DNA of 30,932 nucleotides from an uncultured Gammaproteobacteria bacterium (lineage in GTDB: Bacteria > Patescibacteriota > Patescibacteriia > UBA2591 > UBA6264), in NCBI GenBank assembly GCA_964494785.1, contig CAZBSA010000001.1:1-30932 (forward strand), read 5' to 3'. Made by a program: the position numbers and the translations under genes. The notes below the pieces were generated by a model. The model was not told the origin of the DNA and searched no databases. It was given only the letters and a program-made list of their open reading frames with translations. This document shows positions 4,583-26,815 of the stretch, piece after piece; the stretch's first letter is position 1; the number at the start of each line of letters is the position of its first letter.

Positions 4583-5965
4583 TTATTGATTATATAACCT
4601 TTGCTTTATAAGATCTACCTCCTGTTTAATTCTGCCTTCTTTTTTAATTTCTTTTTTAATTTTTTTATGAGCATGCATTGCCGTAGTATGGTCCCGGTCT
4701 CCTACTTTTTCTCCTATGGTTGGAAAAGAAGAATCAATTTCTTCTCTCATAAGATACATAGCTACTTGCCTTGGAACAACTATTTCTCTTTTACGGGAAC
4801 TGCCTAGCATTTTATCTAATGGAATACCATAAAAATTTGCTACAGTTTTTATAAGTTGTTTAGGCCTAACTAAAGACTTGCTTTTTTTAGCTTTGAGACC
4901 ACTTAAAATATTTTTAGCTACATCTAAGCTCATTTCTGTTTTATGAAAATCACAATATGCAGTTAATTTATTAAGAGCACCTTCTAATTCGCGAACATTA
5001 CTTTGAATATGGCTTGCTAAATATTGAATAATTTTATCGCTTAACTTAACTCCTTTATTTTCAGCTTTATTTTTTAAAATAGCAATCCTAGTTTCTAGAT
5101 CAGGCGAAGATATATCAGCAATCAAACCCCACTCCAATCTTGAAACTAGTCTTTCTTCTAAAGCTGGAATAGCCTTAGGCGTTCTGTCGGATGTTATAAC
5201 AATTTGTCTATCTTCTTGGTATAAGCTATTAAAAGTATGGAAAAATTCTTCCTGAGTTCTTTCTTTACCAGCCATAAATTGAACATCATCAATCAATAAT
5301 AATTCTAACCCCCTATACTTTCTTTTAAATTGATCCATGTTGTTGTTACTAATTGCCCTAATAAACTCATTTGTAAACTTTTCTGCGTTAGTATATAAAA
5401 TTTTAATATCTTTTTTTTCTTTTAGAAGTTTATGGCCTATAGCTTGTAAAAGATGAGTTTTACCAAGGCCAACATCTCCATATATAAATAAAGGGTTATA
5501 TCTAGTACCAAGCTCTTTGCTAACTGACTCGCAAGCCGCATAAGCTAATTCAGATCCTTTACCTACTACAAAATTTTCAAAAGTATAATTAGGGTTAAGG
5601 CCGTATTTGTTTTCTTGTTTTTTAGAAGTCTTTGAACTAGTTTTTTGTTTATCAGATTTACTTGATTTTAGATCTTTAGATTTTTTATTATCTTTTTTTT
5701 CTGGAGCAACTTTATACTTTACTTTTCTCACTTTGCTATCCATTGCATCTTGTAGAGCGTCTAAAATAGAGCGATGATATTTTTTTTCTAACCAATCTTT
5801 AGAAAAATTAGTTGGTACACCAACTACTACAGTTTGATTATTGTCTTCTAATTTTAAAATTCTAGTATTAGAAAACCAAGTTTTAAAATTAGCCTTTGAA
5901 AGATTAAGCTCAAGGTCGGATAAAACTATTTCCCAAAGTTCTTTTTTATCTATTGTTTGATTCAT
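4583..5965 (-). CDS. dnaA: Chromosomal replication initiator DnaA
   Basis: Domain I FKTWF/VPTNFSKDWL; YTFENFVVG; YNPLFIYGDVGLGKTHLL (Walker A); LLLIDDVQF (Walker B); RLVSRLEWG; NVRELEGA; domain IV PRQVAMYL...RDHTTAMHA. Confidence 0.98.
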   Translation of the reverse strand: MNQTIDKKELWEIVLSDLELNLSKANFKTWFSNTRILKLEDNNQTVVVGVPTNFSKDWLEKKYHRSILDALQDAMDSKVRKVKYKVAPEKKDNKKSKDLKSSKSDKQKTSSKTSKKQENKYGLNPNYTFENFVVGKGSELAYAACESVSKELGTRYNPLFIYGDVGLGKTHLLQAIGHKLLKEKKDIKILYTNAEKFTNEFIRAISNNNMDQFKRKYRGLELLLIDDVQFMAGKERTQEEFFHTFNSLYQEDRQIVITSDRTPKAIPALEERLVSRLEWGLIADISSPDLETRIAILKNKAENKGVKLSDKIIQYLASHIQSNVRELEGALNKLTAYCDFHKTEMSLDVAKNILSGLKAKKSKSLVRPKQLIKTVANFYGIPLDKMLGSSRKREIVVPRQVAMYLMREEIDSSFPTIGEKVGDRDHTTAMHAHKKIKKEIKKEGRIKQEVDLIKQRLYNQ

Positions 5966-5997
5966 AAAGCAAAAGTATCTAAAATTGATTTATAATT

Positions 5998-6027
5998 ATT
6001 ATACTATATTCTTTTCATAACAAACAA
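5998..6027 (-). promoter_or_regulatory. Putative sigma70-type promoter of dnaA (TTGTTT-N18-TATAAT)
   Basis: Minus-strand TATAAT at 6003-5998 and TTGTTT at 6027-6022, 18-nt spacer, about 30 nt upstream of the dnaA ATG. AT-rich context makes chance matches likely. Confidence 0.4.
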
Positions 6028-6037
6028 ACTAACAAGC

Positions 6038-6059
6038 TGTGGATAAATTGTGTAAATAA
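6038..6059 (-). promoter_or_regulatory. Tandem DnaA boxes (one perfect TTATCCACA plus a 2-mismatch TTATTTACA)
   Basis: Plus strand TGTGGATAA at 6038-6046 and TGTAAATAA at 6051-6059, 4 nt apart, directly upstream of dnaA. Confidence 0.75.
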
Positions 6060-6100
6060 AAATATTACTACTTATTTAAAACCTACCATACCAAAATGAT

Positions 6101-6128
6101 TTGTCAAGAAATAAAAAAATGTTATAAT
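6101..6128 (+). promoter_or_regulatory. Promoter of the rpmF-nusB-rnc-smc operon (TTGTCA-N16-TATAAT, extended -10)
   Basis: TTGTCA 6101-6106; TG at 6120-6121; TATAAT 6123-6128; about 32 nt before the rpmF ATG. Confidence 0.65.
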
Positions 6129-6160
6129 ATAATCAATTAAAAAAGTAAATAAATAAAAAT

Positions 6161-9731: not shown

Positions 9732-9761
9732 AAAAACTCCGAAAGCAAAATCGGAGTTTTT
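9732..9761. terminator. Bidirectional intrinsic terminator between convergent smc and mreB-like gene
   Basis: AAAAACTCCGA-AAGCAAAA-TCGGAGTTTTT: 11-bp stem whose outer A/T runs give a U-tract in either direction. Confidence 0.85.
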
Positions 9762-9792: not shown

Positions 9793-10833
9793 TTACTCCC
9801 TGGCTGAAGGAATCAAAACAGGCTTTAAATTATCAAAATCCTCTAATATTAACCCTATCCCCCTTATTACAGAGGTTTCAGGCTCATTAGTAATATAAAC
9901 TGGGACTTCTATTTTTTCTTTGGCTAATTTTTCAAAACCACCTAATTTAGAACCACCACCGGAAAACATAATACCTCTCTCATAAATGTCAGAAACTAAT
10001 TCTGGCGGGCTAGATTCTATAGTATCATGAATAGATTCGATAATAGTGTTTAATAAAGGCATTATAGCTTCCCGTATTTGAGATTCCGTTACAATAATCT
10101 CTTTGGGTAAACCACTTCGTAAATCTCTACCCTTAACAGACATCTCTTTATTTTTATCAGACTGAAAAGCAGAACCTATTTGTGTTTTTAATTTAGATGC
10201 AGTTTGATTACCCAAAAGTACGCCAAACTCTTCTCTTACAAAACTAATTATTCTAGAATCAAATGATTCACTACCTATTTTTAAAGATTTCCACTCCACA
10301 ATCCCATTTAAAGAAATAACAGCTATTTCAGTTAAACCGCCCCCTATTTCTACCACCATACTTCCAATAGACTCTTGAACCGGCAAACGAGCCCCTATAG
10401 CTGCTGCCATTGCTCTTTGTACTAAATGTACTTGCTTTGCCCCAGCTTGTAGTATAACGTCCTCTAAAGACTTTTGTTCTACTTCTGTTACTTCCAAAGG
10501 GACGGCTGTTATTACAGTTGGTCTAGATACTAAAGCAAAAACATCTCTGTGTACTTTTTCAAAAACATTTTTAAGCATTTTTTCTGTCACTTCAAAGTCT
10601 GAAATCACTCCATGATGAAGGGGTTTTACTACTTCTATATGTTCAGGCACTTTACCCTCCATTTTTAAAGCATTTTGGCCAAGAGTAATAATTTGATCTT
10701 GTCTTTTATTAATAGCAACAATAGATGGTTCACTCATCATAATCCCCCTATCTTTTAAATAAACCCTAGTGTTGCTGGTTCCTAAATCAAGACCAATATC
10801 TTTTGAAATTGTTCCTAATATTTTTTTAAACAT
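9793..10833 (-). CDS. mreB: MreB-like actin homolog (divergent paralog)
   Basis: DIGLDLGTSNT, EPSIVA, PLHHGVISDF, AMAAAIGA, EIGGGLTE, IKTQIGSA-like LKTQIGSA, VKGRDL, SGGGS, GIG. Catalytic residues altered (see findings). Confidence 0.88.
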   Translation of the reverse strand: MFKKILGTISKDIGLDLGTSNTRVYLKDRGIMMSEPSIVAINKRQDQIITLGQNALKMEGKVPEHIEVVKPLHHGVISDFEVTEKMLKNVFEKVHRDVFALVSRPTVITAVPLEVTEVEQKSLEDVILQAGAKQVHLVQRAMAAAIGARLPVQESIGSMVVEIGGGLTEIAVISLNGIVEWKSLKIGSESFDSRIISFVREEFGVLLGNQTASKLKTQIGSAFQSDKNKEMSVKGRDLRSGLPKEIIVTESQIREAIMPLLNTIIESIHDTIESSPPELVSDIYERGIMFSGGGSKLGGFEKLAKEKIEVPVYITNEPETSVIRGIGLILEDFDNLKPVLIPSARE

Positions 10834-17205: not shown

Positions 17206-18213
17206 TTAATTAACTGATAAAATACTTCTTTTATAAGAATCTAAATTACTAAGAGCTTGTCCAGTTCCTTTTGCTACTGATAAAAGAGGTGCATCAGCTG
17301 CATAAGCAGGCACACCTATATCCTGAGTAAGTAATTTATCTAAATTCCTTAAAAGAGCGCCTCCACCGGATAAAACCATACCCTTTTCTATAACATCAGC
17401 TGAAAGTTCTGGGGGCGTTTCGTGTAATACTGACTTCACTGCTACTACAATAGAATTAAGCTCATTTTGAATTGCTTCAGTAACATCAGTTGAATCAATG
17501 GTAATTACTCTAGGCAAACCTAAAACCATATCTCTCCCCTTAATGTCCATTTCTTTAGCTTTTTCTAGCTCTAAGGCAGAGCCAATTTTAATTTTTATCT
17601 CTTCAGCACTTCTTTCTCCAACAGCTAAATTATATTTCTTTTTAATAAAATCTGCTATAGCAGCATCCAATTTATTCCCAGCTACTCTAACTGAAGTACA
17701 TTCAACTATTCCCCCTAAAGATATAACAGCAGCTTCAGTAGTACCTCCACCAATATCAATAATCATATGCCCAGAAGCTGAACCAATAGGAATCCCTGAA
17801 CCAATAGCAGCAGCAATAGGCTCTTTAATAATATAAGCTGCTTTTGCACCAGCTTTCATAGTAGCATCTACAACAGCCCTTCTCTCAGTTGAGGTAATTC
17901 CGCCTGGAACAGCAACCATCACTTCTGGCTTAAATAAATTAAGTCTACCAATTGCCTTTGACACAAAATAATTAAGCATAGCTTCGGTTGAACGATAATC
18001 TGCAATAACTCCATCTTTGAGCGGCTTTTTAGCAATAATTGTTCCCGGGGTCCTTCCAATCATTTCTTTTGCTTCATCTCCCACAGCTAAAACTTTTTTA
18101 TCTACGGTAGAAATAGCAACAACCGAAGGCTCGTTTATGACTATACCTTGGCCTGGCAAATATACTAAAATATTAGTTGTGCCTAAATCAATACCTATTT
18201 TTTTAGAAAACAT
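17206..18213 (-). CDS. mreB: Rod shape-determining protein MreB (canonical)
   Basis: IGIDLGTTN, NEPSVVA, MIGRTPG, PLKDGVIAD, KEPIAAAIG, DIGGGTTE, AEEIKIKIG, GRD, LSGGGALL, VAKGTG. Confidence 0.97.
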   Translation of the reverse strand: MFSKKIGIDLGTTNILVYLPGQGIVINEPSVVAISTVDKKVLAVGDEAKEMIGRTPGTIIAKKPLKDGVIADYRSTEAMLNYFVSKAIGRLNLFKPEVMVAVPGGITSTERRAVVDATMKAGAKAAYIIKEPIAAAIGSGIPIGSASGHMIIDIGGGTTEAAVISLGGIVECTSVRVAGNKLDAAIADFIKKKYNLAVGERSAEEIKIKIGSALELEKAKEMDIKGRDMVLGLPRVITIDSTDVTEAIQNELNSIVVAVKSVLHETPPELSADVIEKGMVLSGGGALLRNLDKLLTQDIGVPAYAADAPLLSVAKGTGQALSNLDSYKRSILSVN

Positions 18214-18241
18214 AAAATAATTTAAAAATATTTATATCTTT

Positions 18242-18269
18242 ATTGTAATTTAATATTTAAAAAAGTCAA
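18242..18269 (-). promoter_or_regulatory. Promoter of mreB-GT4 (TTGACT-N16-TACAAT)
   Basis: Minus-strand TTGACT 18269-18264 and TACAAT 18247-18242, about 29 nt upstream of the ATG. Confidence 0.55.
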
Positions 18270-18280
18270 CTCTTATATAA

Positions 18281-18307
18281 TAAAAGGGACAATTATTGTC
18301 CCTTTTA
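18281..18307 (-). terminator. Intrinsic terminator after rfbA
   Basis: Perfect 13-bp inverted repeat TAAAAGGGACAAT-T-ATTGTCCCTTTTA, about 25 nt downstream of the rfbA stop. Confidence 0.8.
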
Positions 18308-18331
18308 AATTATATAGAAAAAATTATAAAA

Positions 18332-19057
18332 TTAATCTGATTTATGGTCTTTATCATATAAATATTTAGTAGTTCTAAATAAAGACTCAAATTTTCCAGC
18401 ATCTGACCAAAACCCATCTAAAATCTCAAAAGTAGCTGTACCTTGATTAATATAAAAATTATTAACATCAGTAATTTCGTATTCTCCCCTGTCAGATAAA
18501 GTTAATCCTTCAATAACATCAAAAACTTGATTATCAAACATATAAAGCCCAGTTACAGCTAAGTTGCTTTTAGGTTTATCTGGCTTTTCTTCAATATTTA
18601 TAACTTTATCTTTTTCAACCTCAGCTACTCCAAACCTATTAGCCTTCTCTACTTCTTTGAAGAAAAGCTTAGCACCCTTTTTTTGTTCTTTAAAATCTTC
18701 AACATACCCTCCAATATTATCTTCAAAAATATTATCTCCTAAAATTACAGCTATTTTTTCTCCATCTGAGAAATCTCTAGCCCTTTTTAGAGCATCTGCA
18801 ATCCCTTTAGGAGCAGTTTGAATAGCATAGTTTAGATTAACCCCAAATCTTTTGCCATCATTTAAAAGCTCTAAAAAATCTCCAGCATGACCTTTGCCAG
18901 AAATAATTAAAATATCTTCAACTCCAGCTTTAGCTAACTTTTCTAAAGGATAATAGATCATTGGTTTTTTATAAACCGGTAAAAGATGTTTATTTGTGAC
19001 TTTTGTACAGGGCATAAGTCTAGTCCCTCTGCCCCCAGCTAAAATAACTCCTTTCAT
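18332..19057 (-). CDS. rfbA: Glucose-1-phosphate thymidylyltransferase (short form)
   Basis: GVILAGGRGTRL, NKHLLPVY.KPMIYYP, YAIQ..P.GIA.A, LGDNIF, FGVAE, EKP, AVTGLY, RGEYEITD, WSDAG. Clustered with rfbBDC. Confidence 0.9.
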   Translation of the reverse strand: MKGVILAGGRGTRLMPCTKVTNKHLLPVYKKPMIYYPLEKLAKAGVEDILIISGKGHAGDFLELLNDGKRFGVNLNYAIQTAPKGIADALKRARDFSDGEKIAVILGDNIFEDNIGGYVEDFKEQKKGAKLFFKEVEKANRFGVAEVEKDKVINIEEKPDKPKSNLAVTGLYMFDNQVFDVIEGLTLSDRGEYEITDVNNFYINQGTATFEILDGFWSDAGKFESLFRTTKYLYDKDHKSD

Positions 19058-19076
19058 AATTTTTTATAAATTAAAT

Positions 19077-20036
19077 TTATTTAAGTTTTTCCCACCACCA
19101 TTTATTATTTTTATACCAATTAATAGTATTTTCAAGGGCATCACTAAAATTAAATTCAGGCTGCCAGCCTAAATTACGAATCTTAGAATTATCTAAAGCA
19201 TATCTAAAATCATGCCCTTTTCTATCAGTTACAAACTTAATTAACTCCTTATTGGGTTGAATTTTTTCTTGCAATAATTTAGCAATTTCTAAATTACTTT
19301 TTTCCTCTCCTGTCCCAATATTATATATTTCGCCAATTTTTCCCTTTTTTAAAACTGTATCAATACCTTTACAATTATCTAAAACATGAATCCACTCACG
19401 TATATTACTACCATCTCCATATAAAGGCACTTTTTTTTCTTCAAATAAGTTAGTGGTAAAAAGTGGTATAAACTTCTCTACATGTTGATAAGGCCCAACA
19501 TTATTACAAGAACGTGTAATAAGGGCAGGAAAGTTATAAGTTTTAATATAAGATCTTACCAACACATCAGCAGCTGTTTTTGAAGCTGAATAAGGATTAT
19601 TTGGCTTTAATGGATCTTTTTCTCGAAATTTACCTTTTTTTGCACTACCATATACTTCGTCTGTGCTAATTTGAATAAAACGATCTATATTATAAAATTT
19701 AGAAACATTTAATAAAACATTAGTCCCCAAAACATTTGTTTTGGTAAAATTAAGAGAATTTTTAATAGAATTATCTACATGTGATTCAGCCGCAAAATTT
19801 ATCACTGCATCTGGCTTTTCATTTTCCATGATTTGAGAAACTATACTTTCATCAGCTATATCACCTTTTATGAGTTTATAATTATCATTATCCTCTAAAT
19901 CTTTAAGGTTGTCTGGATTACCAGCATAAGTTAACTTATCTAGATTAATAATTTTAACTGAAGAATCAGAGTTTAATTTATATCTAATAAAATTAGAGCC
20001 AATAAAACCTGCCCCACCAGTAACTAATATTTTCAT
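19077..20036 (-). CDS. rfbB: dTDP-glucose 4,6-dehydratase
   Basis: VTGGAGFIGSNF, DKLTYAGN, AAESHVD, STDEVYG, PYSASK, LYGDG..IREWIHV, DRKGHDFRYA. Confidence 0.96.
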   Translation of the reverse strand: MKILVTGGAGFIGSNFIRYKLNSDSSVKIINLDKLTYAGNPDNLKDLEDNDNYKLIKGDIADESIVSQIMENEKPDAVINFAAESHVDNSIKNSLNFTKTNVLGTNVLLNVSKFYNIDRFIQISTDEVYGSAKKGKFREKDPLKPNNPYSASKTAADVLVRSYIKTYNFPALITRSCNNVGPYQHVEKFIPLFTTNLFEEKKVPLYGDGSNIREWIHVLDNCKGIDTVLKKGKIGEIYNIGTGEEKSNLEIAKLLQEKIQPNKELIKFVTDRKGHDFRYALDNSKIRNLGWQPEFNFSDALENTINWYKNNKWWWEKLK

Positions 20037-20039
20037 AAA

Positions 20040-20891
20040 TTATATATTTAAATTATTTAAAAATCGTTTTGTAGCATCTTGCCAAGTCGGTGTTTTATAA
20101 TTAAGTATTTTTTCAATAGGAAAATTATTTAAGCTAGTGCTTTGAGGTCTTTTTGCTAAAGTGTCAAAATCGCTTGCCTTAGCCTTTTCTAATTTACCTT
20201 GCCAGCCTACTTGTTTTAAAATTAATTTTGCCCAATCATATTTAGAACATTGACCACTATTTGAAAAATGGTAAAGGCCAAAATTATTAGTTTGAAATAG
20301 CTTAATTGAAACATCTGCTAGGTCATTTACAAAAGTTGGGCTACCTATTTGATCTGATACTATTTTTAAACTATTCTTTTCTTTCGCCCAATTTAAAGCC
20401 TTTAAAGGAAAACTGCTTTTGGGATTTTTTCCAAAAAGCCAAGAGGTTCTTATTATAAAATATTTATTAGCAAAACTTTTAACCATTTTTTCGCCTAAAA
20501 GTTTACTTTGGCCATATTTATTTATAGGATTGGGAATATCAGCAATATTATATTCTTGCTTTTGGCCTGAAAAAACATAATCGCTGCTAAAATGAAATAG
20601 TAATGCATTGATTTTATTGCTAAAGTGGGCAAGATATTTTAAGGCTATACCATTTACTAAAAAAGCTTTTTTCCAATCCTTTTCTGCTTTATCAACCATA
20701 TTATAAGCAGCACAATTAAAAATTATATCAGGTTTTTTACTTAAAATATTTTCTTTTACCTGATCAAATTGAGTAATATCTAAATCTTTTTTGGTCAATA
20801 AAAAAACCTCATTTTCAGAGGATAGTTTTTCTTTAAAACTTTGAGCCAGTTGTCCTTTAGCGCCAGTAATTAAAATCTTTTTATTCTTCAT
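20040..20891 (-). CDS. rfbD: dTDP-4-dehydrorhamnose reductase
   Basis: ITGAKGQL, LDIT, NCAAYNMVDKAE, SSDYVF.G, PINKYGQSK, IIRTSWLFG, IVSDQIGSPT. Confidence 0.95.
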   Translation of the reverse strand: MKNKKILITGAKGQLAQSFKEKLSSENEVFLLTKKDLDITQFDQVKENILSKKPDIIFNCAAYNMVDKAEKDWKKAFLVNGIALKYLAHFSNKINALLFHFSSDYVFSGQKQEYNIADIPNPINKYGQSKLLGEKMVKSFANKYFIIRTSWLFGKNPKSSFPLKALNWAKEKNSLKIVSDQIGSPTFVNDLADVSIKLFQTNNFGLYHFSNSGQCSKYDWAKLILKQVGWQGKLEKAKASDFDTLAKRPQSTSLNNFPIEKILNYKTPTWQDATKRFLNNLNI

Positions 20892-21432
20892 AAGAAAAAT
20901 TATTATTAGACTCTTTTAAACTGGGTAAATTTTTATCTTTTTTAGATAGAATAGGATCTTGAATAGGCCAATCAATACCAATATCTGGGTCATTCCATCT
21001 AATACCCGCCTCATGCTCAGGAGAATACTCTTTGGTGCATTTATACATAATTAAAGAGTTGTCTTTAAGAGAACAAAATCCATGGGCAAAGCCTTCTGGG
21101 ACATAAAGCATCTTTGTATTATCTTCTGACAAAATCTCCCCTATCCATTTACCATAGTTAGGTGAACCTTTTCTAATATCAACTGCTACATCTAAAATTT
21201 TTCCCTTAAGGCAATAAACAAGCTTGCCTTGTGCTTTAGGATTATTTTGAAAATGAAGCCCCCTAATTACACCTTTTTTAGAAACAGAAATATTGTCCTG
21301 CTTAAATTGGGGTACTTTACCATTAAAAAAAGACTCTTTAAAAACTTCTTCAAAATAACCCCTGTTATCTTTAAAGGACCTTAAGCGAAACAATAAAACA
21401 TTATTGTGTTTTTTAGATATTTTAAAAGGCAT
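20881..21432 (-). CDS. rfbC: dTDP-4-dehydrorhamnose 3,5-epimerase
   Basis: DNRGYF, QDNISVS.KGVIRGLHFQ, QGKLV, DVAVDIRKGSP, VPEGFAHGF, GIRWNDP, LSKKD. Confidence 0.96.
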   Translation of the reverse strand: MPFKISKKHNNVLLFRLRSFKDNRGYFEEVFKESFFNGKVPQFKQDNISVSKKGVIRGLHFQNNPKAQGKLVYCLKGKILDVAVDIRKGSPNYGKWIGEILSEDNTKMLYVPEGFAHGFCSLKDNSLIMYKCTKEYSPEHEAGIRWNDPDIGIDWPIQDPILSKKDKNLPSLKESNNNFSYEE

Positions 21433-21468
21433 AAAATTATTTACTTAAATTCTACTTTTACTAATTCT

Positions 21469-21497
21469 ATAATATATAAATTTTAAAATTATTGCAA
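21469..21497 (-). promoter_or_regulatory. Promoter of rfbCDBA (TTGCAA-N17-TATTAT)
   Basis: Minus-strand TTGCAA 21497-21492 and TATTAT 21474-21469, 17-nt spacer, 36 nt upstream of the rfbC ATG. Confidence 0.55.
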
Positions 21498-21515
21498 ACC
21501 AAAACTAGTTAATAT

Positions 21516-22061
21516 TTAAAGAGAGTTATTTTTATTTTTTTCTATTTTTTTTAATAAAGTTTTTTTTAAATCTTGGGCTATTTTAGGATCCAAACCAGGA
21601 ATTTTCCCCTCAGCTCCCCTAATCCCAGAATAGCCAGCTGTTTGAACAAGTAAATTACTTAATTTTAAAAATCTAGCAACTAGATCCCTTTGAATATCTA
21701 CATTTTGTATATTTTGATACGGAATAGTTATATATTTTTTGTGAATTACTCCCTTGTTTATATTTAAAATTTTCTCTTTTAGCTCATAACGCCAATTACG
21801 ATAAACTAATTTAGACCAAATATAGCAAAAAATTATTATTAAAAGCATTAAAAATATTAAGGGCAATAAAAACACGACTAAGAAAGGCAATCTTTCTAAA
21901 ACATTACTTAAACCAGCTTGACTAGCTTTCATTAAAGAAGCAATCGCAAAAAAGATCATAGGCAAGATTAAAAAAATAGAAAAAGCACCCCCTGCTATCA
22001 AAGAGCCTCCTAAATAGCGCACAAAGAAATACCAAACTGATTTTTGATGTATTTTTTGCAT
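21516..22061 (-). CDS. Bacterial PH-domain (YdbS/bPH_2-like) membrane protein; start reassigned to ATG 22061
   Basis: Two hydrophobic segments, then WRYEL...INKGVI......IPYQNIQNVDI.R....RFL.L..L.VQTAG...IPGL. The ORF-track extension to 22139 runs through two promoters. Confidence 0.85.
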   Translation of the reverse strand: MQKIHQKSVWYFFVRYLGGSLIAGGAFSIFLILPMIFFAIASLMKASQAGLSNVLERLPFLVVFLLPLIFLMLLIIIFCYIWSKLVYRNWRYELKEKILNINKGVIHKKYITIPYQNIQNVDIQRDLVARFLKLSNLLVQTAGYSGIRGAEGKIPGLDPKIAQDLKKTLLKKIEKNKNNSL

Positions 22062-22085
22062 ATAAAATAAGTTATTATTAATTTT

Positions 22086-22114
22086 AGTATAATACTTTTT
22101 TAAAAAAATAACAA
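22086..22114 (-). promoter_or_regulatory. Promoter of the PH-domain gene (TTGTTA-N17-TATACT)
   Basis: Minus-strand TTGTTA 22114-22109 and TATACT 22091-22086, 17-nt spacer; back-to-back with the plus-strand promoter at 22126. Confidence 0.55.
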
Positions 22115-22125
22115 TATTCTCTAGT

Positions 22126-22154
22126 TTGACAAAATACAAAAAAAGTTATATTAT
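22126..22154 (+). promoter_or_regulatory. Cassette-1 promoter TTGACA-N17-TATTAT
   Basis: TTGACA 22126-22131, 17-nt spacer, TATTAT 22149-22154; SD AGGAGG at 22184-22189. Confidence 0.8.
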
Positions 22155-22194
22155 CAATATAAATAGATCTATAAAATTTAAAAAGGAGGAAAAA

Positions 22195-22758
22195 ATGAAA
22201 ATAATCTCGCCTACCGAATTTCAAGAAAAATTAACCAGTGGCTATAAGCGCTTTTATAATACCATTATCACTGGATCAATTAGAATTGAAAATAAAAAAG
22301 TAAAAGATATTATTTTATCCGATGTAGAAATTAAAGGTAGCTTTGAAATAGAAAATATTGATTTAGATAATTTTTGTCTTTGTAATGTTAATATAAGAGG
22401 TATCATGGTTTTAAGAAATATACTGGTGAAATGTATTTTAGATATTAGAAAGACTCAAGCAGATAGTATAAAATTCTCAGAAGTTAATGTTCAACAAAGA
22501 TCTCTTTTATCTCAAATCAAGATTAGCAGTTTTTTAGATATTGTTGAATCCAGATTTCATGCTTTTAATCTAAAAGAAATTAAAGTTACTGAAGAAGATT
22601 TAGCAAGAAAAACTTTTTCAAAAGGAATTGGCCAGGAAAAAATAAAAGATTGTTATATGTTGAGAATCCAAAGATTGATGTTTTATGGCAAAGAAATTTT
22701 AATAAAATACAGCCCCAGCCCGCAAAAGTGCACTAGATTTAAAATCGTCACTGGTTAA
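22195..22758 (+). CDS. Hypothetical 187-aa protein with 10/11-residue repeats (predicted beta-solenoid, pentapeptide-like); start reassigned to ATG 22195
   Basis: AGGAGG 5 nt before the ATG. Repeats NTIITGSIRIE / NKKVKDIILS / DVEIKGSFEIE / NIDLDNFCLC / NVNIRGIMVLR / NILVKCILDIR. Own promoter and terminator. Confidence 0.75.
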   Translation: MKIISPTEFQEKLTSGYKRFYNTIITGSIRIENKKVKDIILSDVEIKGSFEIENIDLDNFCLCNVNIRGIMVLRNILVKCILDIRKTQADSIKFSEVNVQQRSLLSQIKISSFLDIVESRFHAFNLKEIKVTEEDLARKTFSKGIGQEKIKDCYMLRIQRLMFYGKEILIKYSPSPQKCTRFKIVTG

Positions 22759-22795
22759 AAGCCCCAAGTAATAAAATATTGGGGCTTCTTTTTTT
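22759..22795 (+). terminator. Intrinsic terminator of cassette 1
   Basis: AAGCCCCAA (22759-22767) ... TTGGGGCTT (22779-22787), then C and a 7-T tract, directly after the stop codon. Confidence 0.85.
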
Positions 22796-22797
22796 GC

Positions 22798-22826
22798 TTG
22801 ACAAAAATAATTTTTAATATTATTAT
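22798..22826 (+). promoter_or_regulatory. Cassette-2 promoter TTGACA-N17-TATTAT
   Basis: TTGACA 22798-22803, 17-nt spacer, TATTAT 22821-22826; SD GGAGGT at 22865-22870. Confidence 0.8.
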
Positions 22827-22873
22827 AAAAATAGTACGATAAAAAATTAAAAAAACAAAGGAAGGGAGGTAAT

Positions 22874-23053
22874 ATGCAGCGCATATTAAAACTAAAAAGA
22901 GTCATCTGCCCTAAAAAAACTTGTTTTAGAGAAATAGAGATTCAAATTGTTACAAAATGCTACAAGAACAAACCTGATGAGCCTGAAGTTAAATTTGTAC
23001 AATGTCCTAGATGCAAAACCATATACAATATAGAAAAAAATACAAGCACTTAA
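22874..23053 (+). CDS. Small 59-aa Zn-ribbon-like protein, not in the ORF track
   Basis: My translation: MQRILKLKRVICPKKTCFREIEIQIVTKCYKNKPDEPEVKFVQCPRCKTIYNIEKNTST*. CPxxxC...CPRC knuckles, SD GGGAGGT 3 nt before ATG, dedicated promoter and terminator. Confidence 0.85.
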   Translation: MQRILKLKRVICPKKTCFREIEIQIVTKCYKNKPDEPEVKFVQCPRCKTIYNIEKNTST

Positions 23054-23066
23054 TCTAAATACAAAT

Positions 23067-23094
23067 AAAGAGGTGAAAAAACACCTCTTTTTTT
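23067..23094. terminator. Bidirectional intrinsic terminator between the Zn-ribbon gene and the GGDEF gene
   Basis: AAAGAGGTG-AAAAAA-CACCTCTTT followed by further T residues; the reverse reading also ends in TTTATTT. Confidence 0.85.
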
Positions 23095-23122
23095 ATATAA
23101 AAAATAAACTTAATTTATGAAT

Positions 23123-23656
23123 TTAATTGCCATTTTTTGTCTTATCTTTATGATAATACATTTTTCTATCAGCTCTTTTTGAAACTTGTACTAAATTATC
23201 TATTTTCCAAGACTCTATACCATAACTTAAACTAGTTTCTGAACATAAATTATTTTTGTTAATATATTCGTTAAATTGTTTTGTTACTCTTTTTAAAAGT
23301 TTTTTTGAATTTTCCTTGCTAGTTCCAGGTAAGAGAGCCACAAACTCGTCCCCTCCCCATCTAGCTACTAAATCACTTTCTCGACTATTTTCCTCAAGCA
23401 ATTCACCTATTTTAGTTAAAACTTTATCTCCTACATCATGACCAAATTGATCATTAATCCTTTTAAAATTATTAACATCCATCATAACAAAAGTTAAATC
23501 TCTGTCATAGCGACGAGCGTTTGCTAGTTCTGTCTTAGCCACTTCTTCAAAATAACGCCTATTGTAAAGGCCGGTTACCGGATCTTTAAATATATTTTCT
23601 CCCATTTTATTTAATATTGATAATTTATGAAAAAAATCTTTAATTACTTTAAACAT
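23123..23656 (-). CDS. Stand-alone GGDEF diguanylate cyclase
   Basis: DPVTGLYNRR, MDVNNFKRINDQFGHDVGD, I-site RESD, RWGGDEF, SYG, ADRKMY..K. Confidence 0.93.
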   Translation of the reverse strand: MFKVIKDFFHKLSILNKMGENIFKDPVTGLYNRRYFEEVAKTELANARRYDRDLTFVMMDVNNFKRINDQFGHDVGDKVLTKIGELLEENSRESDLVARWGGDEFVALLPGTSKENSKKLLKRVTKQFNEYINKNNLCSETSLSYGIESWKIDNLVQVSKRADRKMYYHKDKTKNGN

Positions 23657-23677
23657 AAAAATACTAAGTTTTAAAAA

Positions 23678-24952
23678 TTATTTATTTAATTCCTTTTTTA
23701 AATTTAAAATTTCTCTCATTTGGTTTTTCAACCAATTACTGCCAGAAATCATATTATTATATGTGCCCTCATCAACTTCTTGTAATTGTTCTCTCACACC
23801 TTTAATAGCGCTTTTTAAATATTTAATATTTTTCTTGTAATCATTTTTCTGAGATATTATATCCTCTTTCTCTTGGTCAGATAAATTGGTTTGTAACCTT
23901 TTATTACATTTTTCTAACCCTATTTCTGAGTTTTGCAATAATTTTCTAAAAAATCTAATTTGTATTGTCATTGCATTTTTTTCAGTATATTTTGTGAATT
24001 TTACCTGATGCTTTATACGCATTTCAACCTCCTCCATATTTTCGGGTAAATATTCTAAATTATCAGTTATATTCTCTATCTTGCTCCATTTGTTGCAAAT
24101 AATTTCGTTTTTTTGCATTTCTGGATATTGATTATAATCCACCGCATGAACAGTTTCATGTACTATGGCAGCAAAAACTGAAGCAGTAATATTGTTTGCA
24201 CTTGCCGGATTTTCAGCTGGATTGTTTTGTAAAATTTTTGCATAGCGAGGGTTAATAACAATTGCTTTATGCTCTGGCCAATACGCCCCAACAGTATGAT
24301 CGGGTATTTTAGCCTCCTTGCCATTATCAAGTTCTAAATTGCTAGCTATACGTATATCTATTGTAGGTATATCAATATCAACTCCTACCTCTTCTGCCCA
24401 ATCTTCATATTGTTTAACTCCTAGCTTAACAGCTTCTTTAGCAAACTCCTCAATATCTTCAACACTAAAATATCCCTTTTCTAGTTTTGATTCTATGCTA
24501 ATAGGAACATCAACTGTTTTTACTTTGTTTTCAACTGAGCGCAGATAACTAAAATCTGACTTTTTAGTAATTTCTCCAGATTCTGCCCGGCCAGGCAAAG
24601 CGGGGATAGCAACCATTGCAAGAGCAAAACCAGTCTTTAAAACCCTTTTTAACTTCCCTATTAAACTATTAACTTTTTTGCGTTTTGGTATTTCTTTATT
24701 TTTTGATGAAGAAAAAAGACTATTGTAATTTTCTTTAATCTTATCAAGTAATGAATAAAAACTTTCTTTATTTTGTTCTTTTAGATCATCTATTTTATTT
24801 AAAAAACCATATCTATCTTTGTTTTCTTTTTTTGCGTGAGGCAACCTTTTAAAATTAGGGTCTACTTGAAAATTGCCTCCCTCTTTATTTATTTTTTCTT
24901 TTTTCTTTTTAGGGTCAGTCTGATTAAAAACTGGCTGTTTTTCAAAATTCAT
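23678..24952 (-). CDS. Hypothetical protein with HExxH zincin-like motif
   Basis: GAYWP...IVIN...AIVHETVHA, with a downstream Glu in YTEKNA as candidate third ligand. One internal hydrophobic segment at aa about 105-120. Confidence 0.6.
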   Translation of the reverse strand: MNFEKQPVFNQTDPKKKKEKINKEGGNFQVDPNFKRLPHAKKENKDRYGFLNKIDDLKEQNKESFYSLLDKIKENYNSLFSSSKNKEIPKRKKVNSLIGKLKRVLKTGFALAMVAIPALPGRAESGEITKKSDFSYLRSVENKVKTVDVPISIESKLEKGYFSVEDIEEFAKEAVKLGVKQYEDWAEEVGVDIDIPTIDIRIASNLELDNGKEAKIPDHTVGAYWPEHKAIVINPRYAKILQNNPAENPASANNITASVFAAIVHETVHAVDYNQYPEMQKNEIICNKWSKIENITDNLEYLPENMEEVEMRIKHQVKFTKYTEKNAMTIQIRFFRKLLQNSEIGLEKCNKRLQTNLSDQEKEDIISQKNDYKKNIKYLKSAIKGVREQLQEVDEGTYNNMISGSNWLKNQMREILNLKKELNK

Positions 24953-25005
24953 ATTAAATTAAAATTATATAATATTTTTAAACTAAGCCAAGCTAATAAT
25001 TAGTA

Positions 25006-25740
25006 TTATTTATTTAAATACTGTTGAAATTGTTTGGCATTTTTAATAGCATGGGCTTTTATGTCGTTATTAAAATAAATAAAAACCTGATCTAAATTGC
25101 TTTTCCAATCTTTTACTTTTTCAGCCCATTCTTTTAAAAAATCACTATTATAACTATTTTTGTAATTACCACTTGGACCATGAAAGCGTATATATACAAA
25201 ATTTGAGGTTATCCAATCAATATTTTCATCAACCATATCATTAATGCAAAAACCTATATTAAATTTTCTTAATATAGATCTTATGTTCTCCTTTAACCAA
25301 GCCTTATTACGAAACTCAAAAACATAGTCTTGGTCTTTAGTTTGATTTAAAAGCAATTTTATAAAATTTTCTAACCTCTTAGCATCAACATGCCAGTTAG
25401 GGGGAAGTTGAAAAAGTATAGGCCCTTTTTTAGCATTCAGATATTCCATTCTTTTTAAAAATCTTTTTAAAGAATTTTTTGGATTTTTAAGCTTTTTAAG
25501 GTGAGTAATATAGCGACTGGCTTTAACAGAAAAAACAAAATCAGATGGTACTTTTTTAAGCCATTTCTTTAAACTCTTTTTAGATGGCAGCTGATAAAAA
25601 CTATTATTAACCTCCACCGTATTAAAATGATCAGCATAAAAATTTAACCAAGCACTATTTTTTAAGGATTTGGGATAAAATTTATTTTTCCAATCTTTAT
25701 AAGACCAGCCTGAGGTGCCAATAAAAATTTTACCTGACAT
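25006..25740 (-). CDS. DUF72 (YecE-like) family protein
   Basis: IGTSGWSY..W...FYP, FNTVEVNNSFY, FVFSVKASRYITH, GPILFQLPP, FEFR, YIRFHG, FIYFNND..AHA..NA. Confidence 0.92.
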   Translation of the reverse strand: MSGKIFIGTSGWSYKDWKNKFYPKSLKNSAWLNFYADHFNTVEVNNSFYQLPSKKSLKKWLKKVPSDFVFSVKASRYITHLKKLKNPKNSLKRFLKRMEYLNAKKGPILFQLPPNWHVDAKRLENFIKLLLNQTKDQDYVFEFRNKAWLKENIRSILRKFNIGFCINDMVDENIDWITSNFVYIRFHGPSGNYKNSYNSDFLKEWAEKVKDWKSNLDQVFIYFNNDIKAHAIKNAKQFQQYLNK

Positions 25741-25765
25741 AAACTAATTATAAGCCATTTATTAA

Positions 25766-26815
25766 CTAAATTTTGGCCTGCTTTTCAATTTCCCTTTTTT
25801 TGGCAGATTTCTTTTTATAAATCATATAATCCTTTATTAAAATCGAGACGATAGTAGCAAAAGGAACGGCTAAAATCATTCCTAGCGGTCCAGCAATTTT
25901 ACCTCCTATTAAAAGCACTACTATAATTGTTAAAGGGTCTAGCCCAACAGCTCTGTGCATAATGTAGGGTGAAATTAAATTACCTTGAATTTGTTGGATA
26001 ATAATATAAAGAATTATAACAAATAAAGCCAAAGTAGGGGATTGCGTTAAAGCGACAATTACGGCTGGTATTGCTCCTATGTATGAACCAATATAAGGTA
26101 TAAATTCTGTAATACCAGCTAAAACCGCTAAAGCCAGAGCATATTTTACCCCTAAAATCGAAAGACCAATATAAGACATAATAGTAACACAAACTACTAA
26201 CATAAGCATACCTCTTCCCCAAGAACCAATCTCTTTTTGGACTGAATCTAAAAACCTATCAATAAAACCTTTATATTTTTCAGGGATAAATCTTTCTATC
26301 ACAGAAGAAAGGGTCTTTTTTTCTATTGTTAAATAAAATGCAATAACAAAAATCATAAAGCCAGTAAAAAATTGCCCAGTTACTGAACCTAAAACAGAAA
26401 AAACACTCTTCCCAACCCCAGGAGAACCTTGGAGCCAGCCCCCTAAAACCTGAACTAAATCGGATTGAGTTTTAGTAGAAAAATTTTCCATTAAAGAAGC
26501 AATTGTTTCAGGTAATCTTGTGATTAAAACATGGCTTTGATTTATAACCTTTGGTACTACGGCTACTCCTATTAAAGAAATAACAGCAGCAATTAAAATA
26601 TAAGTTATAGCAGCTCCCAGCCATCTAGCTATTTTTTTTCTTTCTAAAAAATTAACTAAAGGAGTTATAATAGTAGCTATAATAGCAGCTGTAAAAATAA
26701 TTAATATAATATCTCTTATTAAATAAAGAAAAAGCAGCCCTAAAATTACTCCAAAAATCTTCGCAATAGACCAGAAATCAAATTTAATAATAGTTGTTTT
26801 AGTGTTTTTGTTCAT
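25766..26815 (-). CDS. AI-2E (PerM-like) family transporter
   Basis: Multiple TM helices; LAGITEFIPYIG, QQIQGNLISPYIM, GL.PLTII..L..GG...G.LGMILAVP. Confidence 0.9.
   Translation of the reverse strand: MNKNTKTTIIKFDFWSIAKIFGVILGLLFLYLIRDIILIIFTAAIIATIITPLVNFLERKKIARWLGAAITYILIAAVISLIGVAVVPKVINQSHVLITRLPETIASLMENFSTKTQSDLVQVLGGWLQGSPGVGKSVFSVLGSVTGQFFTGFMIFVIAFYLTIEKKTLSSVIERFIPEKYKGFIDRFLDSVQKEIGSWGRGMLMLVVCVTIMSYIGLSILGVKYALALAVLAGITEFIPYIGSYIGAIPAVIVALTQSPTLALFVIILYIIIQQIQGNLISPYIMHRAVGLDPLTIIVVLLIGGKIAGPLGMILAVPFATIVSILIKDYMIYKKKSAKKREIEKQAKI

Follow-up and report, generated by a model that had tools for sequence, protein, structure and literature searches.

Two Shine-Dalgarno-led orphan genes in a small accessory segment of a Patescibacteria chromosome

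Two complete expression units against the local gene direction

Here we describe two small genes, ORF1 and ORF2, in a 30,932-nt stretch of contig CAZBSA010000001.1 (assembly GCA_964494785.1), the whole of which is called the window below. The window comes from an AT-rich (29% GC) Patescibacteria chromosome and is a housekeeping stretch with dnaA, rpmF, nusB, rnc, smc, two mreB paralogues, proS, another class II aminoacyl-tRNA synthetase (aaRS) gene, frr, an rseP-like gene, the rmlABDC sugar operon, an AI-2E-family transporter gene, and DUF72 and DUF4015 genes. Its MreB is 83% identical to that of several metagenome-assembled genomes (MAGs) labelled "Patescibacteria group" and 70-74% identical to that of Komeili-, Uhr-, Falkow-, Kuenen- and Kerfeldbacteria, a host group that we take to be the GTDB class ABY1. 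The original prediction had singled out two plus-strand units in an otherwise all-minus block of 21 kb, and the ORF map bears this out: the units occupy 22126-22796 and 22798-23097, and all remaining long ORFs across 9793-30927 lie on the minus strand. The units are composed as follows.

22126-22154, plus strand: promoter 1, with -35 TTGACA at 22126-22131, a 17-nt spacer and -10 TATTAT at 22149-22154
22155-22194, plus strand: leader 1, A-rich and unstructured, with the Shine-Dalgarno (SD) sequence AGGAGG at 22184-22189, 5 nt before the ATG at 22195
22195-22758, plus strand: ORF1, 187 aa, pI 9.4, orphan
22759-22796, plus strand: intrinsic terminator 1, hairpin at 22759-22787 (9-bp stem, 11-nt loop, -14.1 kcal/mol) and U-run at 22789-22795
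22798-22826, plus strand: promoter 2, with -35 TTGACA at 22798-22803, a 17-nt spacer and -10 TATTAT at 22821-22826
22827-22873, plus strand: leader 2, A-rich and unstructured, with the SD sequence GGGAGG at 22864-22869, 4 nt before the ATG at 22874
22874-23053, plus strand: ORF2, 59 aa, pI 9.5, orphan
23067-23097, both strands: intrinsic bidirectional terminator 2, hairpin at 23067-23090, z = -5.4 on each strand

The predicted order of elements (TTGACA-N17-TATTAT, A-rich leader, strong SD, ORF, hairpin terminator) is thus present in both units. The U-run of terminator 1 ends at 22795 and is followed by GC and then, after this 2-nt gap, by the -35 hexamer of promoter 2 at 22798, as had been claimed. 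Terminator 2 is common to ORF2 on the plus strand and the convergent GGDEF gene on the minus strand, and with terminator 1 it leaves each unit complete, insulated and monocistronic. The predicted folding energy is 0 for leader 1 and for leader 2. An exact TTGACA-N17-TATWAT occurs twice in the window against 0.06 expected (at least two in 0 of 100 shuffles), and promoters 1 and 2 are its two top-scoring promoter-like sites. The idea that both units carry the same promoter holds for the hexamers and the spacer length, which are identical, but not for the spacer sequence, in which 6 of 17 positions agree, the chance level for this AT content. Promoters 1 and 2 are two consensus sites and not copies of one module; a duplicated promoter module is ruled out by the unrelated 17-nt spacers.

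The same arrangement is found in three independent assemblies at 99.8-99.97% identity and is therefore not an assembly artefact, and both ORFs were also called as genes by the independent JGI annotation. ORF1 extends over 187 codons at 27% GC, in sequence where base composition leads one to expect stops at roughly 8% of codons. ORF1 and ORF2 are real, independent, monocistronic genes. Judged by its sequence, each unit would be transcribed from a near-consensus housekeeping (sigma-70-type) promoter, translated by SD-led initiation and ended by intrinsic termination. The predicted start points of transcription lie near 22161 and 22833, and the predicted 3' ends near 22795 and 23097.

The Shine-Dalgarno sequence as the anomaly

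For 31 of the window's 32 long ORFs we inspected the 25 nt ahead of the start and found an SD sequence in two of these genes only, ORF1 and ORF2. The leaders of the other 29 are AT-rich and contain no motif like GGAGG; rpmF, dnaA, frr, the two mreB copies and the aaRS genes belong to this set. Two of these SD-less genes, for which high expression would be expected, have good promoters, rpmF with TTGTCA-16-TGnTATAAT at 6101-6128 and mreB with TTGACT-16-TACAAT at 18269-18242, so strong expression in this host would need no SD. The stacked layout of the two units, which the original prediction had treated as special, has counterparts elsewhere in the window: the -35 hexamer of mreB lies about 10 nt beyond the terminator of rmlA (-19 kcal/mol, z = -4.8; about 18284-18307), and a second convergent gene pair has a common bidirectional terminator at 9732-9761. 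The promoter and terminator style of the units is ordinary for this genome; the SD is not. The original prediction had also weighed whether the two genes might be fixed in all relatives and their architecture normal for the genome; the genes are absent from the relatives compared, and normality extends to promoters and terminators but not to the SD.

The reading of an SD depends on the 3' tail of the host 16S rRNA. A 16S rRNA 3' end, the place where the anti-SD CCUCC would stand, was found neither in the window nor in any of the 164 loci searched, and roughly half of Parcubacteria are reported to lack the anti-SD motif (PMC9297842). In Flavobacteria, whose ribosomes otherwise ignore the SD, rpsU carries one that is used for autoregulation (PMC9976891, PMC13000453).

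ORF1 and ORF2 encode orphan proteins

Neither protein could be assigned to a known family, in agreement with the original prediction. A word-indexed search of 5.8 billion proteins returned self-matches only for both, and an exhaustive HMMER/phmmer search of 1.84 billion cluster representatives found ORF1 nothing but itself at E <= 0.001. Pfam gave nothing usable for either protein at E <= 10, PHROGs gave no match better than E = 0.055, PADLOC gave 0 matches at E <= 1 for the two proteins and their four neighbours, and no match was found in 50,697 phage records, plasmids or IMG/VR viral contigs. The large collections of proteins, phages and plasmids that were searched thus hold no relative of ORF1 or ORF2, which makes both orphans, and the suggestion that they might be phage or defence effectors found no backing in PHROGs or PADLOC.

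ORF1 is a basic protein of 21.7 kDa in which hydrophobic residues recur at periods 5 and ~21. A single-sequence AlphaFold model (pLDDT 54 overall) shows a beta-solenoid at residues 1-100, with pLDDT 75-91 over the first 70, and no confident fold for the C-terminal ~90 residues. Foldseek returned nothing at E <= 0.001 against PDB and BFVD for either protein; the best, non-significant matches of ORF1 (E = 0.1 in PDB, 0.06 among the viral models of BFVD) were the pentapeptide-like luminal domains of SV2, ice-binding proteins, pentapeptide proteins and pectate lyases, all of them beta-helices. The model suggests that the front half of ORF1 is probably a pentapeptide-like beta-solenoid. Among the loci compared, the best, non-significant match of ORF1 is to the pentapeptide-like part of an SD-bearing orphan of 447 aa (L162, 2481-3824, minus strand); at E = 0.31 in the search, this weak similarity (26% over 98 aa) was rejected as evidence of homology and is probably a resemblance of repeat type only.

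ORF2 is a basic protein of 7 kDa with cysteines at positions 12, 17, 29, 44 and 47 (Cx4C ... CxxC), a pattern that would suit a beta-hairpin protein of zinc-ribbon-like type. Its single-sequence AlphaFold model (pLDDT 68) places the cysteine pairs on predicted beta-hairpins, and its matches to zinc-ribbon models are sub-threshold (Zn_ribbon_4, 18.1 bits against a cut-off of 30.3). On inspection, neither sequence shows a signal peptide or a membrane segment, and both proteins are thus probably cytoplasmic. Binding of nucleic acid or protein would be our guess as to their function.

Gene gain between mreB and the AI-2E transporter gene

The interval in which the units lie differs in content among relatives. 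Its coordinates in the window are as follows.

17206-18213: mreB, flank of the interval
18214-25765: variable interval from mreB to the AI-2E gene, with 10 genes in the window, 4 in L085 and 0 in ten relatives
21498-25757: lineage-specific segment of ~4.3 kb with the bPH gene, ORF1, ORF2, the GGDEF gene, the gene of a 424-aa HExxH protein and DUF72
25766-26815: AI-2E transporter gene, flank of the interval

The ten genus-level relatives with an empty interval (L002-L005, L086, L087, L089-L091 and L096; MreB 78-83% identical) have a gap of 20-305 nt between mreB and the AI-2E gene. In L085, the closest sampled relative (98.5% identity in MreB, 84% in the class II aaRS and 76% in AI-2E), the interval from AI-2E to mreB holds rmlC-D-B-A only. 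A junction alignment shows that the promoter and leader of rmlC and the ~8 nt that directly follow the stop codon of AI-2E are conserved between the window and L085, which identifies the extra DNA of the window as ~21498-25757. This segment is missing from L085, where a spacer of ~20 nt stands instead; its ends are approximate, with a margin of about 10 nt, and no boundary repeats of the ~4.3-kb segment were found. Four of its six genes have host-style signals with no SD. A bPH or GGDEF gene was found at this site in none of the sampled genomes besides strain-level copies; the best bPH relative from the protein search was a 38% identical protein on a 713-bp contig, the genome scan gave none, and look-ups of the exact proteins returned strain-level copies only.

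As these comparisons suggest, the interval is a site of stepwise gene gain in which the visible unit of gain would be the six-gene segment and not the two cassettes. The insertion hotspot of arrayed modules that had been proposed is thus retained in one respect, since the wider interval gained genes (0, 4 and 10), and lost in the other, as there is no array of like modules. Nor do cassette number and content vary among the three strain-level copies, which show 0 differences across 21029-24006, with no single-nucleotide polymorphisms (SNPs) inside the units.

Some further observations concern the same genomes. Over 6.6 kb, 13 positions distinguish L083 from the window; they cluster in mreB, rmlD/rmlC and the gene of the 424-aa protein, and 0 of the 13 fall in the 3 kb of bPH, ORF1, ORF2 and GGDEF; SNPs so few and so clustered are not interpretable alone. 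The junction from the aaRS gene to the AI-2E gene is a second variable junction, with a gap of ~1.3-1.5 kb in L002, L004, L087, L089, L090 and L091, 36 nt in the window and 32 nt in L085. Many MAG records titled "uncultured Gammaproteobacteria bacterium" (L003, L013, L016, L021 and others) have an MreB 70-83% identical to that of the window, and L003 also shares its local gene order; these "Gammaproteobacteria" titles look like mislabels.

SD-bearing genes across the clade

The layout was searched for in 62 AT-rich (GC <= 40%) Patescibacteria loci fetched via MreB (895 kb, 832 genes, window excluded), with genes called heuristically as non-overlapping ORFs of at least 50 aa that start at the first ATG. 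An SD of at least 6 nt precedes 22 of the 832 genes (2.6%), compared with ~0.75% of decoy windows. From these two rates roughly 16 of the 22 would be genuine and the clade almost SD-free; the ~3.5-fold enrichment at the correct position suggests that some of these SDs are probably functional. The SD-bearing genes differ from the SD-less ones in four respects.

Counter-oriented to both neighbours: 7 of 22 SD-bearing and 28 of 810 SD-less genes, P = 1e-5
Exact TTGACA within 110 nt upstream: 7 of 22 and 34 of 810, P = 4e-5
Strong intrinsic terminator downstream: 14 of 22 and 54 of 810, P = 3e-11
Length below 270 aa: 19 of 22 and 320 of 810, P = 2e-5

A Pfam family was absent in 9 of the 10 SD-bearing genes tested, and the SD-bearing genes (24 with the two of the window) exceed their locus medians by 5.7 points in GC and 12.7 points in GC3 (P about 1e-7). 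Some of the lineages compared are mutually related, and GC-rich foreign DNA raises the number of chance SD-like motifs. Two loci illustrate the layout. In L090 (11026-11960), a terminator is followed by TTGACA-17-CATAAT, an A-rich leader, AGGAGG, the gene of a 234-aa DUF5701 protein and another terminator; this unit has 44.5% GC in a 32% GC genome and lies between mreB and a GT4 glycosyltransferase gene, a pair that abuts or lies close in other relatives. In L147 (18974-20064, minus strand), tandem SD-bearing units mirror the layout of the window pair, with the gene of a 77-aa Cys-rich protein, a terminator, a perfect TTGACA-17-TATAAT and the gene of a 243-aa orphan that has 59.8% GC against 36.5% in its host. 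The layout thus recurs in this clade as a class that stands apart statistically, and the association of the SD with counter-orientation, terminators, shortness and GC deviation fits horizontal acquisition.

Neighbouring genes and further features of the window

The nearest neighbours of the units, all on the minus strand, are the following.

21516-22061, minus strand: bPH_2 membrane protein, divergent neighbour, bacterial PH domain, no SD
23123-23656, minus strand: GGDEF protein, convergent neighbour, 177 aa, stand-alone diguanylate-cyclase domain, no SD
23678-24952, minus strand: 424-aa protein without family match, Lys-rich N-terminus, one hydrophobic segment, HETVH (HExxH) motif

The 133-nt intergenic region between the bPH gene and ORF1 holds a candidate promoter (TTGTTA-17-TATACT), and the bPH protein weakly matches a PHROG of the "moron/auxiliary" category (E = 1e-5). 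The sequence features of the 424-aa HExxH protein suggest that it may be metalloprotease-like and either anchored in the membrane or secreted, and its gene is probably co-transcribed with the GGDEF gene 21 nt downstream. No c-di-GMP riboswitch adjoins the GGDEF gene, and no Rfam family scored above threshold in or around the units. The absence of integrase, transposase, attC and tRNA from the vicinity, noted at the outset, agrees with the window scans: the window has no tRNA, and the domain scan, which covered 30 of its 32 long ORFs, showed neither an integrase nor a transposase domain, nor a gene for phage structure, replication or integration. The search for flanking repeats and for repeats common to both units gave AT-rich chance matches only, and no att-like site was found.

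On a larger scale, dnaA (minus strand) and rpmF are divergent with a 195-nt intergenic region (4583-6160), and the window may lie near a replication origin. The GC skew is negative on the plus strand at 18-27 kb, which fits a minus-strand block co-directional with replication and ORF1 and ORF2 head-on to it. The two MreB paralogues (9793-10833 and 17206-18213) lie within 8 kb, and relatives likewise have a second MreB copy, ~40-50% identical and 7-8 kb from the first.

Origin of the two units

With moderate confidence, we favour the view that ORF1 and ORF2 are horizontally acquired, autonomously expressed orphans with their own signals, located in a short accessory segment within a hotspot of gene gain. 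The two genes would have arrived by horizontal transfer as autonomous units that carry their own expression signals, and would have settled head-on in the ~4.3-kb accessory segment, within an AI-2E/mreB interval that repeatedly gains genes. This arrangement would be analogous to the "morons" of phages, in a chromosome without a nearby recombinase. A wider version of this view, plausible but held only tentatively, is that a strong SD, a TTGACA promoter and a terminator together mark a class of imported autonomous orphan genes of which the window pair are AT-rich members. Such a class may represent chromosomal "morons" that enter between conserved genes by recombinase-free insertion, often head-on.

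Several points weigh against a horizontal origin, which we infer from the anatomy, the orphan status and the distribution of the genes. The GC contents of ORF1 (27.1%) and ORF2 (30.0%) are close to the 29% of the host and their codon usage is in the host range, so that they came from an AT-rich donor, are older residents or are native; the SD-bearing genes of relatives are GC-rich, unlike both. The window shows neither a mobility gene nor a repeat or att-like site by which an insertion could be recognized, and there is no sign that the two genes entered apart from their four neighbour genes. That the segment was gained here, and not lost in L085, is suggested by parsimony with one intermediate genome. 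The host ribosome may read the SD, and the transcription and translation of both units are themselves predictions. Finally, the clade test was made on heuristic first-ATG gene calls in loci that are all mreB-centred, and chance would account for the motif in ~6 of its 22 SD-bearing genes.

The host-like composition and codon usage would suit native, lineage-specific genes in a genome that reserves SD-led initiation and consensus promoters for a few genes of very high or conditional expression. We regard this as rather unlikely, even though promoters and terminators follow the style of the host, mobility signatures were not found in the window, the SD motif is ~3.5-fold enriched at the correct position across the clade, and SD-poor Bacteroidia with a special SD-bearing gene offer a precedent (PMC9976891, PMC13000453). 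What speaks against it is that neither L085 nor any other relative compared has ORF1 or ORF2, that no homologue appears in the collections searched and that rpmF, a highly expressed core gene, works without an SD. Moreover, the SD-bearing genes of the clade are GC outliers and counter-oriented, a signature of transfer and not of a regulatory class. The original prediction itself, in which the interval from bPH to GGDEF is an array-like hotspot that stacks complete units, possibly defence or anti-defence effectors, independently of an integrase, seems quite improbable to us. Its two units are complete and abut, the wider interval from AI-2E to mreB gained genes stepwise, L147 has a similar tandem SD-bearing pair (18974-20064), and no recombinase was found in the scanned ORFs of the window. 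On the other hand, two units are not an array, they share no module sequence (spacers 6/17 alike), boundary repeats were not found, the three strain-level copies are identical, an abutting layout is ordinary at operon boundaries of this host, and the searches gave 0 PADLOC matches and no PHROGs match for ORF1 or ORF2 better than E = 0.055.

Decay of a prophage or mobile element that left true phage morons behind is highly improbable. Promoter, gene and terminator are the defining form of a moron, orphan proteins are typical of phage gene pools and the bPH neighbour has its weak "moron/auxiliary" match (E = 1e-5), but the scanned ORFs of the window include no gene for phage structure, replication or integration, neither 50,697 phage records nor IMG/VR contigs gave a match, att repeats were not found and the flanks are housekeeping genes. 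The probability that the signals arose by chance in AT-rich DNA and that the ORFs are not genes is negligible. Weak promoter-like sites are indeed many in this DNA (103 observed, 85 expected), but the two perfect sites compare with 0.06 expected, each is properly placed ahead of an SD and the ATG of a long ORF, with a strong terminator behind it (z down to -5.4), and a 187-codon ORF at 27% GC is very unlikely by chance. Promoter statistics, SD census and terminator folding effectively refute this explanation.

Patescibacteria make up a large share of uncultured bacterial diversity and have small genomes and unusual ribosomes, and both gene gain and translation start are poorly known in them. 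If a horizontal origin of these units is correct, the SD would be a cheap and simple marker by which recently imported genes could be told from the sequence of these genomes, and the marked genes would provide orphan candidates for host-interaction or conflict functions. They would also offer a natural test of whether Patescibacteria ribosomes still read the SD, and raise the question of how and when an SD-indifferent ribosome translates such genes. The two genes of the window alone are of modest practical value until a function is found; as an entry to the clade-wide pattern they are moderately interesting.

Comparison with known systems

Phage morons are a close parallel; Juhala et al. and Hendrix et al. 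reportedly described them in 2000 as autonomous promoter-gene-terminator units between phage genes. The window units share this form: each consists of one gene that stands between unrelated genes and is served by its own sigma-70-type promoter and factor-independent terminator. They are also missing from close relatives and do not depend on a recombinase of their own. The window units differ in that they lie in a chromosomal housekeeping stretch (rml, mreB, aaRS, GGDEF, DUF72) and not in a phage or prophage, show no compositional contrast (27.1% and 30.0% against 29% GC), have no phage relatives, and have as their hallmark an SD in an otherwise SD-less genome. With genomic islets they share presence or absence between conserved genes (AI-2E and mreB), nested gains (0, 4 and 10 genes) and the lack of mobility genes, although the segment is very small (4.3 kb), the cassettes are counter-oriented and their translation signals are unlike those of co-resident genes. 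A classical genomic island would likewise be present or absent in close relatives at a conserved site, but tRNA-adjacent insertion, an integrase and flanking direct repeats are all missing in the window.

Integron cassettes are usually promoterless and served by a common Pc promoter, end in attC and need IntI. They too are small single-gene units arranged head-to-tail, many of which encode orphan proteins, but the window units have their own promoters and terminators, neither attC nor intI was found, and the only structures 3' of ORF1 and ORF2 are terminators with a GC stem and a U-run. From type II toxin-antitoxin pairs, in which two small genes form one operon, they differ in that ORF1 and ORF2 are split by a terminator and a second promoter and have no toxin or antitoxin domain matches. 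As for the proteins, ORF1 resembles pentapeptide-repeat (Rfr-fold) proteins in its periods of 5 and ~21 and its modelled beta-solenoid, but it has no Pfam pentapeptide match at E = 10 and no Foldseek match better than E = 0.1 (PDB) or 0.06 (viral). The DNA-mimic pentapeptide proteins Qnr and MfpA are acidic, whereas ORF1 is basic.

The SD-poor Bacteroidia resemble the present clade in that the SD is almost unused and very few genes have a strong one (PMC9976891, PMC13000453). In the Flavobacteria, however, the exception is rpsU, a conserved ribosomal-protein gene under autoregulation, while the exceptions in the window and other Patescibacteria are mostly orphan and counter-oriented and, in the relatives, GC-deviant. 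In our literature search we found no paper on a near-SD-free setting in Patescibacteria or on a link of the SD to autonomous counter-oriented orphans. Promoter-gene-terminator units (morons) and recombinase-free accessory islets are already known kinds of element. What appears to be new is the near-SD-free setting, as a genuine SD appears in only about 2% of the genes of the Komeili-, Uhr- and Falkowbacteria group and relatives, and the link of the SD to autonomous, counter-oriented and, in relatives, GC-deviant orphans.

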